The notes under the pieces are model-generated. The model was not told where the DNA came from, searched no databases, and was given only the letters and a program-made list of their open reading frames with translations. A stretch of 64,000 nucleotides of DNA from the NCBI GenBank assembly GCA_951406725.2, contig OX597820.1:32302001-32366000 (forward strand). Direction: 5' to 3'. Made by a program: the position numbers and the translations under genes. Below, piece after piece: positions 20,781-61,153 of the stretch. Within the stretch, counting starts at the first letter, position 1, and each line of letters opens with the position of its first letter. The DNA is from Octopus vulgaris. Its lineage: Eukaryota.

Positions 20781-20816
20781 CTTTCTGTTCAAGAGCGTAG
20801 GCTCGAAATGTAAAAG
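20781..20816 (+). ncRNA. Degenerate minimal hammerhead (family of 60566-60603)
   Basis: CTTT-CTGTTCA-A-GAGC-gtag-GCTC-GAA-ATGT-A-AAAG. Stems are intact, core is mutated. Confidence 0.55.
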
Positions 20817-21098
20817 AGTTTCTCACCTTCCCGAGCGTTAAACTTATACACCTGCTTGTTGTTTATACACCTGCCTTCGTCTGCTGTTTTTCTGTAAATT
20901 TCAACTATATAGACTTCGAATGACCCATCCGTGTTTTTGGTATCACCTATCTGGATGTTTTTGCGTTCTTGTCCTGTTTTGTGTTTTTTGTATATATATA
21001 TATATACATATATAACAAATTAAAGTTGTAAGGTACCGCACGAGTTGGAAATATATATGAAAGAAGGTTTGAAAATGCAATTTTAAAGATGTTTATTG

Positions 21099-23520: not shown

Positions 23521-24180
23521 CTACTGGGTATATTTCCCATTTAGTATTGGGTATGTTTTATTTATGAGGACGTACTCCTGTATTTGTCTGAGTGTCGGGT
23601 CCTTTGGGTGCTTGGATAAGATGCAGATGTCAAGTTGACCCAGGTTGCCGCCATGTTGGTCCTTTGCATGTTGGTAGAGTATGGAGGACTGTTTTTTGTC
23701 GTCATATTCTCTCAAATGTTCATTTAGTCGTTCCGCAATGCTCCTAGATGTCTCTCCTATGTATGTCATGTTCATGTCTTTACAAGCACCTTCTATGCAT
23801 CTTATGCTGTAAACTACATTTCTAGTTCTACAGTTGATGTCAGGTCTAATCCTACATATGCAGTTACCATTGGTGCATATGACATTCTCAAAGGGGTACG
23901 TCCTACATAGTTGTGATCTGACGGAGTTCCCTGGCTTTTCAACAATCTTAATGTTGAGTTTGGTTTCCTTCAGAGCTTTCCTAAATGTACGGGCTAGTTC
24001 TCCATGGGCTGTGGCCTCTACAAACACCACTCTTTGATATTTTCTGGATTTATACCTCGTGTTCACTCTGTTTGCTTTGTCACAAGTTCATTGTATCCTA
24101 TTCCAGTCTTTGTTTCTGTATCTAAGGCAGGTACCACTGGTATCATTACATATAATGTTATCTAATTTCTTTCTAGCACC
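23521..24180 (-). mobile_element. Penelope-like element fragment: C-terminal GIY-YIG endonuclease
   Basis: ORF 23521..24066: Cys-rich linker (CTNGNCIC...NCRTR), NVVYSIRC...YIGETSRSIAERLNEH...HAKDQH...RQIQEYVLI...PILN. This is the PLE GIY-YIG signature. Confidence 0.9.
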
Positions 24181-27146: not shown

Positions 27147-27363
27147 TTCAAATTCACCTTAGCCTAATTAAATTATTTTAAATTACTTAAGATACCTGTC
27201 CTGCCTTGGTCTTTATTTTCCTTTTCCCGCTAATATAATGTGTGTGTGTGTGTGGAGGGGAGGTGTATATATATATATATGTATATATGAAAATATTTCA
27301 TAGATAGATACATACACACACACATTTAATATGATGTGCATATGGCGATATATATATATATAT

Positions 27364-30300
27364 TCTAGTAATCTCAAGATTAATCAGCCGAAATTACTAC
27401 GATGATCCGGTTCTTGACTGAAGACTGAGGGTTTCGAATGTCCTGTCCGTGTTTATTGTGTCGTCTTCTAAGAGTTATACGTTCTTGTCCATGTTGTATT
27501 TTTCTACATACCTTAACATATATTCCAGGCGCCCCGTACCCCCCTTAACATTTATGTGAGCACATATTCTTAATAATTGGTACGACTCTCTGTTTGTCTC
27601 TCTCTCTCTCTCATTTTTACTTGATCTGTCCCCCTCTCTCTCTTTTCTCTCTACTCATCCTCTTTTTCTCTTCTCTTTCCTCTGATTCTTTGGTCTAGTC
27701 TTCCACTACCCTCCTATTTCTTTGTCTCGCTCTGCACTCACAGGTCATTCTTCGACACCCATCCCTTCTCCTCTCTGATTCCTTCTTTCTCTCTCTTCTC
27801 TCTCTTTGTTGCGTTTGTCCCTCCTCTCTCTCTCTCCTCTCTCTCTCTCTTCCTTTGCTTCTCTTTCTTTTCTTTTCCCTCTTCTCTGTCACGTGACTGT
27901 TGGCCGAAATCTGCCTTTCAGCTTCTGACCCTTGTCTTGTTAACATCGCTGTTTTCGTCCGCCACTATAAAGGCTTTTTCCATTGCGCCAGAGAAAAAAT
28001 TTGTTTGCTTGTTATCAGTCGTAAGACACTGTTGTTTTCACCGTTAATGCTTCTGTATTTCATGTTTCTGTATTCCATTATTGTTTTTTGTTTTTTTATA
28101 TCTGTCCCTTTTGCTGTCCTGGTGTTCGTATGCATTCGATCCTTCTTCCAGGAAATCTACGCTTCCAGCTTAGTTTTTCTAATGCTCGTTGCTTGGTTTT
28201 TCTTGGAGGGCTGGCCGTGATCTAGTAATCTCAAGATTAATCAGCCGAAATTACTACGATGATCCGGTTCTTGACTGAAGACTGAGGGTTTCGAATGTCC
28301 TGTCCGTGTTTATTGTGTCGTCTTCTAAGAGTTATACGTTCTTGTCCATGTTGTATTTTTCTACATACCTTAACATATATTCCAGGCGCCCCGTACCCCC
28401 TTAACATTTATGTGAGCACATATTCTTAATAATTGGTACGACTCTCTGTTTGTCTCTCTCTCTCTCTCATTTTTACTTGATCTGTCCCCCTCTCTCTCTC
28501 TTTTCTCTCTACTCATCCTCTTTTTCTCTTCTCTTTCCTCTGATTCTTTGGTCTAGTCTTCCACTACCCTCCTATTTCTTTGTCTCGCTCTGCACTCACA
28601 GGTCATTCTTCGACACCCATCCCTTCTCCTCTCTGATTCCTTCTTTTCTCTCTTCTCTCTCTTTGTTGCGTTTGTCCCTCCTCTCTCTCTCTCTCTCTCT
28701 CTCTTCCTTTGCTTCTCTTTCTTTTCTTTTCCCTCTTCTCTGTCACGTGACTGTTGGCCGAAATCTGCCTTTCAGCTTCTGACCCTTGTCTTGTTAACAT
28801 CGCTGTTTTCGTCCGCCACTATAAAGGCTTTTTCCATTGCGCCAGAGAAAAATTTGTTTGCTTGTTATCAGTCGTAAGACACTGTTGTTTTCACCGTTAA
28901 TGCTTCTGTATTTCATGTTTCTGTATTCCATTATTGTTTTTTGTTTTTTTATATCTGTCCCTTTTGCTGTCCTGGTGTTCGTATGCATTCGATCCTTCTT
29001 CCAGGAAATCTACGCTTCCAGCTTAGTTTTTCTAATGCTCGTTGCTTGGTTTTTCTTGGAGGGCTGGCCGTGATCTAGTAATCTCAAGATTAATCAGCCG
29101 AAATTACTACGATGATCCGGTTCTTGACTGAAGACTGAGGGTTTCGAATGTCCTGTCCGTGTTTATTGTGTCGTCTTCTAAGAGTTATACGTTCTTGTCC
29201 ATGTTGTATTTTTCTACATACCTTAACATATATTCCAGGCGCCCCGTACCCCCCTTAACATTTATGTGAGCACATATTCTTAATAATTGGTACGACTCTC
29301 TGTTTGTCTCTCTCTCTCTCTCATTTTTACTTGATCTGTCCCCCTCTCTCTCTCTTTTCTCTCTACTCATCCTCTTTTTCTCTTCTCTTTCCTCTGATTC
29401 TTTGGTCTAGTCTTCCACTACCCTCCTATTTCTTTGTCTCGCTCTGCACTCACAGGTCATTCTTCGACACCCATCCCTTCTCCTCTCTGATTCCTTCTTT
29501 CTCTCTCTTCTCTCTCTTTGTTGCGTTTGTCCCTCCTCTCTCTCTCTCTCTCTCTCTCTCTTCCTTTGCTTCTCTTTCTTTTCTTTTCCCTCTTCTCTGT
29601 CACGTGACTGTTGGCCGAAATCTGCCTTTCAGCTTCTGACCCTTGTCTTGTTAACATCGCTGTTTTCGTCCGCCACTATAAAGGCTTTTTCCATTGCGCC
29701 AGAGAAAAAATTTGTTTGCTTGTTATCAGTCGTAAGACACTGTTGTTTTCACCGTTAATGCTTCTGTATTTCATGTTTCTGTATTCCATTATTGTTTTTT
29801 GTTTTTTTATATCTGTCCCTTTTGCTGTCCTGGTGTTCGTATGCATTCGATCCTTCTTCCAGGAAATCTACGCTTCCAGCTTAGTTTTTCTAATGCTCGT
29901 TGCTTGGTTTTTCTTGGAGGGCTGGCCGTGATCTAGTAATCTCAAGATTAATCAGCCGAAATTACTACGATGATCCGGTTCTTGACTGAAGACTGAGGGT
30001 TTCGAATGTCCTGTCCGTGTTTATTGTGTCGTCTTCTAAGAGTTATACGTTCTTGTCCATGTTGTATTTTTCTACATACCTTAACATATATTCCAGGCGC
30101 CCCGTACCCCCCTTAACATTTATGTGAGCACATATTCTTAATAATTGGTACGACTCTCTGTTTGTCTCTCTCTCTCTCTCATTTTTACTTGATCTGTCCC
30201 CCTCTCTCTCTCTTTTCTCTCTACTCATCCTCTTTTTCTCTTCTCTTTCCTCTGATTCTTTGGTCTAGTCTTCCACTACCCTCCTATTTCTTTGTCTCGC

Positions 30301-30939
30301 TCTGCACTCACAGGTCATTCTTCGACACCCATCCCTTCTCCTCTCTGATTCCTTCTTTCTCTCTCTTCTCTCTCTTTGTTGCGTTTGTCCCTCCTCTCTC
30401 TCTCTCCTCTCTCTCTCTCTTCCTTTGCTTCTCTTTCTTTTCTTTTCCCTCTTCTCTGTCACGTGACTGTTGGCCGAAATCTGCCTTTCAGCTTCTGACC
30501 CTTGTCTTGTTAACATCGCTGTTTTCGTCCGCCACTATAAAGGCTTTTTCCATTGCGCCAGAGAAAAAATTTGTTTGCTTGTTATCAGTCGTAAGACACT
30601 GTTGTTTTCACCGTTAATGCTTCTGTATTTCATGTTTCTGTATTCCATTATTGTTTTTTGTTTTTTTATATCTGTCCCTTTTGCTGTCCTGGTGTTCGTA
30701 TGCATTCGATCCTTCTTCCAGGAAATCTACGCTTCCAGCTTAGTTTTTCTAATGCTCGTTGCTTGGTTTTTCTTGGAGGGCTGGCCGTGATCTAGTAATC
30801 TCAAGATTAATCAGCCGAAATTACTACGATGATCCGGTTCTTGACTGAAGACTGAGGGTTTCGAATGTCCTGTCCGTGTTTATTGTGTCGTCTTCTAAGA
30901 GTTATACGTTCTTGTCCATGTTGTATTTTTCTACATACC

Positions 30940-30943
<4 letters not shown>
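27364..30943 (+). repeat. Tandem array of ~857-bp non-coding unit, 4.2 copies, in (TA)n
   Basis: Units start at 27364, 28221, 29074, 29932 and 30791 (last is partial, 153 bp). Visible differences are essentially homopolymer/(TC)n length changes. Confidence 0.97.
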
Positions 30944-30982
<39 letters not shown>

Positions 30983-31334
30983 ATATATAAATATATGTAA
31001 GTATACAGACATGTATCTGTGTATACATGCATATGTCTGTCTGTCTGTCTGTCTATCTGTCTCTCTATCTATCTTGTAAGGATCACCCACCATAAGCTCA
31101 TATGGCCGTTTTTCCGGATTCTGTGGCATGTGTCGAGTCTAGATTAGACCTATATCTCACACTAAATTGCAGAAAAGGCGTCCAATATTAGGTAATAGTA
31201 AAGGAAAATATTATGGCACTTAATATGCACCTACCCTCCTTATTCGCTCGACTTTTCTCCATCTCAATATCATCTCTTTGAAACGTTATTTCGAAACATT
31301 ATTTAAAGGGAAACAGTCTACAAATTGTGAATAA

Positions 31335-31882
31335 GGTCTTCATCCACATAGGGTGTTGTTATGCGTTTAGTGGGATATGAAAGGTTTAGTCCACTTTGAA
31401 CTTTTAAACCCCAACCAAACGATAACAAAAGGAGATCTACTGCGAGCAGCTTGAGCAGCTTAAGTCAGAGCTGGAAGAAAAACGACCGTCGAAAGGTGTT
31501 CTTCCCTCAGGATTATGCTCGGCTACATACACTGAGGATGACATTCCAAAGGCTGAAGCAGTTTGAATGGCAAACGATTCCCCACTCACCATAGCCGCCA
31601 GACATTGCCCCATCTGATTATCATTTATTCCACAGTCTTCGAAATCATTTGGACGGGAAAAATATGAATTCTGTTGATGAAGTCAGAACAGTACTTGAGG
31701 AATAGTTTTCGTCACGGACAAGTGAATTTTGGGAGAGGGACGTTGCAAGTCTACTAGGTAGATGGAAGAGCATTGTAGAAAATGAAGGAGAGTATATCTT
31801 GGATTAAAAAAGAACTTAGTATATCTTAATTTTGAAAAATAAAAGTATAAAAAAACCGTATTATTTAAGGGATGACCCAATA
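31335..31882 (+). pseudogene. Mariner transposase 3' half with right TIR
   Basis: WDMKGLVHFELL...YCEQL...QDYARLH...HSP*PPDIAPSDYHLFHSL; terminus ...gggatgacccaaTA. Confidence 0.85.
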
Positions 31883-36188: not shown

Positions 36189-36264
36189 AAGAATATACCG
36201 CGTGTGTACCGTTGGTGATTTTTTTCCTCCGTCTTCCCTTCTTTGGATCTTTCCTTTTCCTATA

Positions 36265-36297
36265 TTTCTGACGAAGAGTTCCGCTCGAAACGTTAAA
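36265..36297 (+). ncRNA. Minimal type I hammerhead (ACGT palindrome)
   Basis: TTT-CTGACGA-A-GAGT-tcc-GCTC-GAA-ACGT-T-AAA, in a ~210-bp element ending in (TA)n at about 36402. Confidence 0.8.
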
Positions 36298-36797
36298 CTC
36301 TCCTTCTTTCCGTCTTTCCTGAGCGTCCAATAATACTATACTTGTTCCACGTCCTCGCGTTGTGGTGTTTTCTCTTTGTGTTTTCATGTTTGGATTAACT
36401 TTATATATATATATATATATATATATCATATCTGTATGTACGCATATATATGTGCGTGTGTGAGTCTAACTGTGTGTGGGTGGGTGCACGTGCGCGTATG
36501 TGGGTGGGTGTACGTGCGCGTATGTGGGTATTTCATATGGTTGTTTATCAGTAATAGTAGGTTAAGATGCAAATATGCTCACACAGATCCACACACCGTA
36601 CACAAACACACACACACATACACACACACATACACACACACGCACACACACACACACATCTGTACATACTGTAAGTCGGAAACTTAGCACAACTGATCGA
36701 AGCAAATGAGCCAGCGATACGAGGAAAAGCCTTCAATTTGTCTTTCTCTCTGTTTCTCAGTCTCTGCCTGTCTGTCTCTCTTTCTCTCTCTCTCTCC

Positions 36798-43176: not shown

Positions 43177-43626
43177 GGAAAGAAAAGTCAAGGTAGAAAA
43201 TGCTAAAATAATTATATAAAAAACATTTCAGCACCGATTTCAGTCACTGAGACTTTTTCAACTGTAAGTATGGAAAACAATTAAATTTTGGGGAAAATTA
43301 AAGAAAAGTTTTTTAAACGAATATTTGCATAGTATTCAAATACAAGGGGCATTTTCCTTGTTTCTGCCTGTCTCTGTCTCTCTTGTTTACTCTTCGACCT
43401 CGAACTCACAAGAGTAAACAAGAGAGACAGAGACAGGCAGAAACAAGGAAAATACCCTTTGTATTTGAATACTATGCAAATATTCTTTTAAAAAACTTTT
43501 CTTTTAATTTTTCCAAAATTTAATTGTTTTTTATACTTAAAGTTGAAAAAGTCTCAATAACTGAAACCGGTACTGAAATATTTTTTTATAAAATTATTTT
43601 AGCATTTTCTACCTTGACTTTTTTCC
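43177..43626. repeat. Large foldback (~215-bp arms, 15-nt spacer) with a hammerhead in each arm
   Basis: Arms about 43177-43394 and 43410-43626. HHR motifs at 43229-43264 (-) and 43540-43575 (+), consensus CAG-TTGAAAA-AGTC-tcaat-GACT-GAA-ACCGGT-A-CTG. Confidence 0.88.
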
Positions 43627-54256: not shown

Positions 54257-54379
54257 GTGTAATGGCTCCTTCATTGGTTCTGTAGGCAGTGACTAAAGTG
54301 GTATTAGAGTTGTTGTTGTTGTTCATTATTTACATTGTTTACATTCGACGGATACTTGTCCTCATCTTGTTTGTTGTTA

Positions 54380-54423
54380 ACAAAACGTTTCGGCTGATAT
54401 ACCCTCCAGCCTTCTTCAGGTGT
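54380..54423 (-). ncRNA. Minimal type I hammerhead (classic Penelope form)
   Basis: ACAC-CTGAAGA-A-GGCTG-gagggtatat-CAGCC-GAA-ACGT-T-TTGT. Confidence 0.8.
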
Positions 54424-54471
54424 CTTGGGGGAAATGTTTGAACCTATGTTATTCTTCTTCTTCTTCTTCTT

Positions 54472-60410: not shown

Positions 60411-60565
60411 GCTGGTCCCTCAACCCTATTATCTCCCCTTATTTCGCTCTCGCGTCTCATGTTTGATCTTTGACCTCTGGCCGAAATCAGATCGCCATGT
60501 TGATTCGTTAGCTACTGCACGCATTTTTTTCTCTCCTTCTTTCTGTGTTTTTCTCTCTCTGTGTA

Positions 60566-60603
60566 TCTTTCTGTTGAAGAGCGTAGGCTCGAAACGTTAA
60601 AGA
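60566..60603 (+). ncRNA. Minimal hammerhead with A6U core variant
   Basis: TCTTT-CTGTTGA-A-GAGC-gtag-GCTC-GAA-ACGT-T-AAAGA; element ends in (TA)n at about 60702. Confidence 0.68.
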
Positions 60604-60753
60604 CTTGTTTTATTTATATTTCCTGAGCGCCATACTAATACAATTGTTCGTTTGTTTTCCACCTGCCTTCGTCTTTTGTTTATTTTCATAAAGCTTCCCG
60701 TTATATATATATATATATATATATATCAGAGAGAACAAAGTGTACGTACACCG

Positions 60754-60846: not shown

Positions 60847-61150
60847 GTACGAAATGGGACAAGATCGCAAAACATCCGGATAACTATGTGATACAAAAAG
60901 GGACAACAAAACATCCAGATAGACGATGCAAAAAAACAAGGACAGGTCATTCGATGCTTTCTATCCTCAGTCAAGAACCGGATCCTCAAGATTAATCAGT
61001 TGAAATTGCGAGGATGATCCGGTTCTTGACTGAAGATAAAAAGCTTTGAATGACCCGTCCTTGTTTTTTGTTATCGTCTATCTGGATGTTTTGTTGTCCC
61101 TTTTTGTATCACCTAGTTGTCCGGATGTTTTGCGTCCTTGTCCCATTTTG

Positions 61151-61153
<3 letters not shown>
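60847..61153. repeat. Foldback (~135-bp arms) related to the 857-bp tandem unit
   Basis: About 60847-60984 is inverted to about 61016-61153. Shares ctcaagattaatcag..gaaatt..gatgatccggttcttgactgaaga with 27370-27424. Flanked by (TA)n. Confidence 0.85.

Follow-up and report, generated by a model that had tools for sequence, protein, structure and literature searches.

A 64,000-nucleotide stretch of the microsatellite-rich Octopus vulgaris genome (assembly GCA_951406725.2, contig OX597820.1, positions 32,302,001–32,366,000; hereafter the window) contains a tandem array at 27364–30943 on the plus strand. We favour the reading that this array is a young, non-autonomous Penelope-like element (PLE) of the Naiad kind, with a split-core ribozyme predicted to cut multimeric transcripts into 857-nt monomers. 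The motif at its unit junctions and the 3′ ends of several published Naiads likely share a new hammerhead layout, as judged from their sequences. That the fold is real and selected seems to us very probable, and cutting at the predicted site quite probable. A broader proposal is more tentative and falls a little short of an even call: this would be the seventh hammerhead layout found in nature, its backbone broken within the catalytic core from A9 to G10.1, and ancient (ctenophores to molluscs and arthropods), which together with the type termed CSG would supply the hidden ribozymes of many Naiads, and which would act as a domain-swapped dimer, two copies per transcript, to yield an 857-nt circular retrozyme RNA.

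Array units and ribozyme anatomy

The insertion is a head-to-tail series of four full monomers and a further 153 bp. The unit boundaries fall at 27364, 28221, 29074, 29932 and 30791, giving lengths of 857, 853, 858 and 859 bp, with the final 153 bp ending at 30943. Alignment of the units bore out the original prediction of near-identical copies: the four full units show 0 substitutions, every difference being an indel within a homopolymer or (TC)n run. The unit had also been described as non-coding, pyrimidine-biased and bordered by (TA)n. Its composition is 71% pyrimidine, its open reading frames (ORFs) of at least 100 amino acids are low-complexity and do not keep their frame between copies, leaving no credible ORF, and (TA)n target remnants lie to the left (27348–27363) and right (30944–30972). 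The 3′ end of the element, 30943, is 92 nt past the last CUGANGA core. The array thus shares with retrozymes a non-coding tandem repeat bearing a predicted hammerhead in each unit, and with Naiad a (TA)n target and tandem and inverted 5′-truncated copies. Naiad PLEs are reported to prefer (TA)n, to insert in tandem and inverted forms and to be free of canonical hammerheads, according to Craig et al. 2021 (PMC8557442).

Each unit junction holds all hammerhead core residues and three perfect stems within 73 nt, in a non-nested order. The blocks run from the 5′ strand of stem II through the cleavage site and GAAA to the stem I strand with CUGAAGA, and stems I, II and III mutually cross. Core residues C3-U-G-A-N-G-A9, G12-A-A-A15.1 and U16.1-H17 are all present, and stems I, II and III begin directly at core positions (G10.1–C11.1, A15.1–U16.1) with 6, 6 and 7 bp, the last being 6 bp plus the A–U pair. 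The 5′ strand of stem II comes from upstream; no stem II strand follows the CUGAAGA core, which leaves the A9–G10.1 link open.

In the second copy (28209–28281, plus strand), placed by descriptor scan and duplex folding, stem II joins 28209–28214 to 28241–28246, with G10.1–C11.1 closing it before GAAA (GAA at 28247–28249), and stem III joins 28223–28229 to 28250–28256, A15.1–U16.1 included. C17 is 28230, which puts the predicted cut at 28230/28231. Stem I pairs 28231–28236 with 28269–28274, directly before CUGAAGA at 28275–28281, and a linker separates its first strand (to 28236) from the stem II 3′ strand (from 28241). A fourth helix (helix X/Y), 28214–28222 with 28261–28268, connects the far ends of stems II and I. 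Duplex energies for stems II, III and I and the fourth helix are −8.3, −3.8, −4.8 and −9.0 kcal/mol. The descriptor scan placed further plus-strand copies at 29062–29134 (predicted cut 29083/29084), 29920–29992 (29941/29942) and 30779–30851 (30800/30801), the last also by duplex folding. The first copy (27364–27424, plus strand; predicted cut 27373/27374) is 5′-truncated: the strand of stem II that should lie upstream is missing, and both core boxes are present together with stems I and III.

Both motifs named in the original prediction, one around CTGAAGA and a GGCTG...CAGCC-GAAA hairpin, are present, and the second is indeed stem II as had been proposed. They had been taken for two separate motifs; we predict that they are halves of one ribozyme. 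A hairpin placed just after CTGAAGA does not fold (0 kcal/mol) and its positions vary in the family, and a type I reading leaves the stem I that it needs unpaired (+1.1 and +1.5 kcal/mol). The suggestion of a permuted, type II-like hammerhead is supported as to permutation and not as to type: the order does not fit type II, being non-circular, and the break in the core falls between A9 and G10.1.

In the scheme of Eckert et al. 2023 (PMC10085705), a hammerhead consists of three blocks, C, G and S, each assumed to be uninterrupted, which gives six orders. The array motif does not form the nested three-way junction, with circular block order, of types I, II and III (CGS, GSC and SCG). It does show the non-circular order, crossing stems and helix joining stems I and II that mark SGC and CSG, and it lacks the intact block C of those types, with 0 bp of linked stem II after CUGANGA in 5/5 copies. 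On its predicted pairing, the four-block form amounts to CSG circularly permuted by an opening between A9 and G10.1. An inverted duplication was rejected as the origin of the complementarity, as it would yield nested pairs and the array pairs cross.

We scanned both strands for all block orders, requiring 6 bp in stem I, 6 bp plus the A–U pair in stem III and 6 bp in the upstream stem II. At this full stringency the split layout occurs four times in the window, always inside the array, in addition to the 5′-truncated first copy. Across 40 dinucleotide-shuffled windows (1000 CUGANGA cores), split layouts with stems I and III of at least 6 bp arose 0 times, and 2 arose at the loosest thresholds. 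The scan is blind to minimal hammerheads such as that at 54419, whose stem III is below threshold. An Rfam search of the window returned no hammerhead, and nothing inside the array, among the best 150 of 323 matches (E ≤1). Matches to a DNA pattern elsewhere (0 in viral contigs; 0 and then 8 in metagenome contigs; 16 in prokaryote genomes) were discarded, all 24 loci being chance hits with flank identity of 0.12–0.36.

The layout in Naiad 3′ ends and in the octopus family

We examined by eye the last 350–650 nt of 42 of the 54 Naiad consensus sequences in File S5 of PMC8557442. The array's four-block order occurs in 9 of these 42 ends, 7 of them independent, from a ctenophore, a hydrozoan, a box jelly, a coral, an acanthocephalan, an ostracod and an octopus, and spanning five animal phyla. 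Stems I/II/III and the fourth helix measure, in bp, 6/6/5/5 in Ovul and Obim, 5/6/10/5 in 4_Dst, 6/6/12/10 in Amil and Anas, 6/6/4-6/8 in Plae, 4/5-6/6/7-8 in 2_Movir, 5/4/5/8 in 3_Chem and 2/6/7/16 in Bfor. A fixed length of 13–15 bp for stem III plus the fourth helix was dropped given Amil (~22 bp) and Bfor. Sequence after CUGANGA pairs with stem II in 0/9. Six further ends of the 42 carry type CSG, intact: 1_Nbra, 2_Nbra, 3_Nbra, Hcon, Hpol and Smim (five nematode, one spider). PMC8557442 notes core boxes that fit no descriptor in some Naiads, under the tags 'HHR_core' and 'HHR_half_core' only.

The stem letters of the four-block ends are wholly different, a full turnover across the 7 independent ends as judged by eye and without a statistical test; CUGANGA, GAAA, U16.1–H17 and G10.1–C11.1 are nevertheless intact and rightly placed in 7/7. 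This pattern bears on the possibility that cutting has been lost and the motif survives as a relic or as a structure bound by protein, with the tandem made by template jumping or from a multimeric transcript. The PLE PAc offers a precedent, as its hammerhead mutants insert unimpaired and no reads end at its cut site (PMC11167929), PLE hammerheads are often weak cutters in vitro (PMC4209133), and the 5′ end of the array lies off the predicted site. We nonetheless regard a relic as unlikely, because a core kept while stem letters change is hard to explain without catalysis.

By eye, no hammerhead core was seen in the Naiad-1_Movir 3′ end, the bivalve ends or the Clytia 1/2 ends. The Naiad-1_Movir end resembles a twister ribozyme, and the bivalve and Clytia 1/2 ends have another conserved structured motif in common. 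Naiads may swap ribozyme classes.

The array unit is present in 20 of 24 listed sequencing runs (9 studies, two organism labels); 2 of these runs are recorded as RNA, and for 15 an RNA origin is a guess. Four runs were compared over 30086–31700 as short-read contigs, and the variants given here are those listed, with 126 further variant rows and 494 loose ends outside that list. Contigs X1 record 3 and X10 record 9 span the junction 30790/30791 with 0 differences, and X1 record 1 continues beyond 30931 into the unit body. Contigs of other runs thus contain both junctions of the monomer, so that a form joined head to tail, or a circle, is present outside this assembly; contigs cannot tell a circle from tandem DNA. 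The same junctions argue against the four copies having arisen through misassembly or through local tandem duplication after a single-copy insertion, which we consider very unlikely. Copies that differ solely by indels typical of long-read consensus errors would suit such an origin; multi-copy head-to-tail insertions are, for their part, typical of non-autonomous PLEs and retrozymes (PMC8557442, PMC7229834). The copy number of the array has no bearing on the ribozyme finding.

Contig X1 record 4 (18 differences over 121 nt) carries C at 30796 and G at 30823, a compensatory T–A to C–G change in stem III, and its upstream strand of stem II is retained. Of the remaining family variants listed, one is in the bulge (30827) and the others lie past the core (30852, 30856 and 30859), and because the common variants fall there, the letters after CUGANGA do not appear to be held to pair with stem II. 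This matters for a reading in which the unit is an ordinary type-SGC ribozyme, the 4 nt after CUGAAGA pairing with 28241–28244 and leaving a 2-nt bulge before GAAA. Such a 4-bp helix exists (−3.2 kcal/mol), the S-G-C order and 4-nt linker match those of HRIMA-1 (PMC10085705), and the truncated first copy would become complete. The G10.1–C11.1 pair would be missing, however, positions after the core differ in the commoner family variants and in relatives within the window, and none of the nine four-block Naiads pairs after the core, whereas the upstream strand always pairs. We judge this the least probable of the alternatives, marginally behind an assembly artefact or local duplication.

A contig of run X7 reads 8 of 9 A as G on the plus strand over the motif (first 12 letters compared with the array, the rest with the relative at 60985), and looks like an ADAR hyper-edited plus-strand transcript, retro-copied if the run is DNA. 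It covers 30729–30827 at single-copy-like depth, without the upstream stem II strand and cut site. Depth in X7 is 1–4 × 10^5 over the unit body and up to 1.6 × 10^6 over the motif, compared with 35–50 in unique flank; these values are not a copy number and suggest a large family. Four linked T/C differences at 30493–30507 define two subfamilies of this young family: runs X10 and X19 are fixed for one, and X1 has the window's type.

Diverged relatives had been proposed at 60847–61153 and about 20915–20990. They exist, with matches at 60985–61079 (plus strand, 81% identity), 60921–60987 (minus strand, 79%) and 20915–20988 (73%), and the likeness is confined to the ribozyme region and the 3′ end, not extending to the unit body. 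The forward arm of the first (60985–61153, plus strand) lies in (TA)n, has a mutated stem II 3′ strand and starts 0–3 nt from the predicted cut site; a shorter, inverted and 5′-truncated arm (60847–60984, minus strand) makes this a Penelope-type inverted insertion. The second (20915–20993, plus strand) is a 3′-end fragment without the ribozyme that ends in (TA)n. Overall, support was obtained for the original view that the element is young, dispersed, multimeric and retrozyme-like and that its hammerhead is permuted.

Predicted cutting, copying and insertion

We propose that the plus strand is transcribed, folds into the hammerhead and cuts after C17 (28230 and equivalents) to give 857-nt monomers, such as that predicted from the descriptor scan between two cuts at 27374–28230 (plus strand). 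The sole TATAAA box of the unit (27966–27971, plus strand), ~260 nt ahead of the next cut site, is a candidate internal promoter. The fourth helix would stack continuously on stem III, a point on which we are evenly divided, to form a long hairpin, its loop carrying GAAA and the cut site; from the hairpin base would hang the stem II 5′ strand and the stem I strand with CUGANGA. Given the hammerhead shape, such base strands would be unable to reach their own loop if the hairpin is 15–22 bp with a 0–1 nt spacer, and the loop of the next copy would be within reach. It is therefore the loop of an adjacent copy, not their own, that the base strands would probably complete, and cutting would need two copies, a requirement for which we see the balance as level. 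Dimeric minimal PLE hammerheads are thought to permit cutting in multimers and to spare monomeric circles (PMC4209133).

The monomer may then be circularised, by analogy with non-long-terminal-repeat (non-LTR) retrozymes, for which circularisation and reverse transcription round the circle are described (PMC7229834; Li et al. preprint). A PLE reverse transcriptase/GIY-YIG enzyme acting in trans would nick (TA)n, prime at the fixed 3′ end (30943 equivalent) and copy the equivalent of 4.2 units from a circle or a multimer, the former of which would make the array a product of rolling-circle copying. A PLE enzyme that primes internally, at a fixed position, on AT-rich DNA has been described (PMC11167929). 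This mobilising partner is proposed from architecture, because no sequence match to a Naiad consensus was found.

A fold in cis is a less likely, minority alternative to the two-copy arrangement: the four-block hammerhead would assemble within one copy, with the fourth helix bent back at the bulge or melted, possibly with help from a protein. With an open fourth helix, the 8- and 12-nt linkers of the array could be long enough, given the geometry of the hammerhead structure. A single short RNA suffices for cutting by type-SGC ribozymes (PMC10085705), and the PAc hammerhead is protein-assisted (PMC11167929). An opened fourth helix sits poorly with its complementarity in 9/9 four-block and 6/6 CSG Naiads and with the requirement for its counterpart for cutting in SGC-3 (PMC10085705). 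In Amil, 4_Dst, Hcon, Hpol and Smim, moreover, it meets stem III through 0–1 nt on one strand, which makes a continuous helix of ~15–26 bp.

Several observations weigh against the retroelement and ribozyme that we favour. In the PLE PAc, the hammerhead is dispensable for insertion in vitro and needs protein to cut (PMC11167929), which counts against a simple model. Pairings in the Naiad ends were read by eye, with names taken from the file order; stem I of Bfor is just 2 bp; neither layout appears in 27 of the 42 ends in the stretch displayed, some of which have a core and no clear fold; and short-motif searches of the published Naiad consensus sequences for letters of the array family gave no match. 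Nested folding of 30770–30870 gives stem III a probability of ~0.66 and stem II 0.33, with a rival helix taking the upstream strand, in a model that excludes crossing helices; it also recovers the long hairpin of the fourth helix and stem III. The cleavage triplet here is AUC, which most natural hammerheads lack according to the title of PMC1636495. Contigs X1 record 3 and X10 record 9 cross the predicted cut site uncut, and the contigs of the four runs gave no RNA ends or circles, which contigs cannot show. Within-family covariation amounts to one pair in one contig, where the next pair outward appears broken. Two 5′ ends in the window are informative, one at the predicted cut (60985) and one, that of the array (27364), off site at 10 nt upstream. 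The literature available to us yielded no tested hammerhead with an open A9–G10.1 link.

Other features of the window were noted. A second short GGCC-GAAA stretch in each unit body (27900–27915), which may be a remnant stem II/GAAA block, recurs at 60468–60480 upstream of the hammerhead at 60570. Minimal type I hammerheads with an extra A after A9, some of them decayed, lie at 54375–54430 (minus), 36262–36305 (plus), 60565–60605 (plus) and 20785–20820 (plus), at the 3′ ends of other short PLE-type insertions. A remnant GIY-YIG endonuclease, C-terminal, from a canonical PLE (PF01541, E 2e-6) occupies 23524–24087 on the minus strand; it was set aside as a partner of the array, sitting at the C-terminal end of its frame, unlike in Naiad, and could not be connected with the array. 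A near-perfect long inverted repeat at 43349–43455, with ~40-bp arms and several microRNA models matching below thresholds, is probably a miniature inverted-repeat transposable element or an inverted PLE junction. The 3′ flank at 31330–31700 is itself a high-copy repeat of transposase-like appearance.

Relation to known hammerheads and retroelements

If correct, the layout would explain why Naiads, among the most abundant invertebrate retroelements, seemed free of hammerheads: many would have ribozymes invisible to standard descriptors. Non-circular RNA permutations would move from rare environmental RNAs to high-copy elements of animal genomes, the assumption of six exhaustive block orders would be broken, and a retrozyme class would have been missed in every survey using type I descriptors. 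Type CSG, read by eye in six published Naiad consensus sequences, was so far known from two metagenomic sequences in the sources available. Our literature search found no report of non-circular hammerheads in animal genomes or Naiads, or of an open A9–G10.1 link, and subscription papers or supplements may hold one.

The closest known ribozymes are SGC (HRIMA-1) and CSG, which the available text of PMC10085705 describes as validated, drawn from metatranscriptomes and metagenomes, and absent from the genomes of known organisms apart from one GCS candidate. The array motif shares with them the handedness of block order, the crossing of stems I–III, a short linker between stems I and II and a helix joining the far ends of these stems. 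That helix is required in the non-circular forms, and it sometimes meets stem III without a spacer, an arrangement that the known structure cannot easily accommodate (PMC10085705). Block C of those types, made up of a stem I strand, CUGANGA and a stem II strand, is taken as indivisible, whereas the array has its stem II strand before the cut site and no pairing sequence after the core.

Minimal type I PLE hammerheads (Cervera and de la Pena 2014, PMC4209133) likewise sit near the 3′ end of their elements, have a similar stem II sequence and probably need two copies. They differ in their nested order, tiny stem III and one extra nucleotide after A9; the array has a long stem III and a fully open A9–G10.1 link. 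PLE hammerheads conserve a single nucleotide between A9 and G10.1 (PMC4209133), and a viroid hammerhead tolerates one there (PMC3705267), which makes this the one core position known, from these sources, to accept an extra nucleotide.

Compared with whole elements, the array is retrozyme-like in its predicted working, but it falls outside non-LTR retrozymes by hammerhead type and size, and is neither SGC nor CSG as defined. Non-LTR retrozymes also consist of non-coding units repeated head to tail, each with one hammerhead, and have a GC content below 45% and a PLE association (PMC7229834; 10.64898/2026.07.22.740005), and are built from type I hammerheads in units of 150–450 bp (Cervera and de la Pena 2020, PMC7229834; Li et al. 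2026 preprint). The array differs in its 857-bp unit and in a non-circular ribozyme that type I descriptors would miss, and its circular RNA is a prediction made here. With Naiad PLEs it shares the (TA)n target, tandem and inverted truncated copies and, in 9 of the 42 ends, the four-block ribozyme near the 3′ end. Naiads are 3.4–4.4 kb and encode an endonuclease and reverse transcriptase (EN-RT), whereas the array unit has no ORF and no sequence match to their consensus sequences (PMC8557442).

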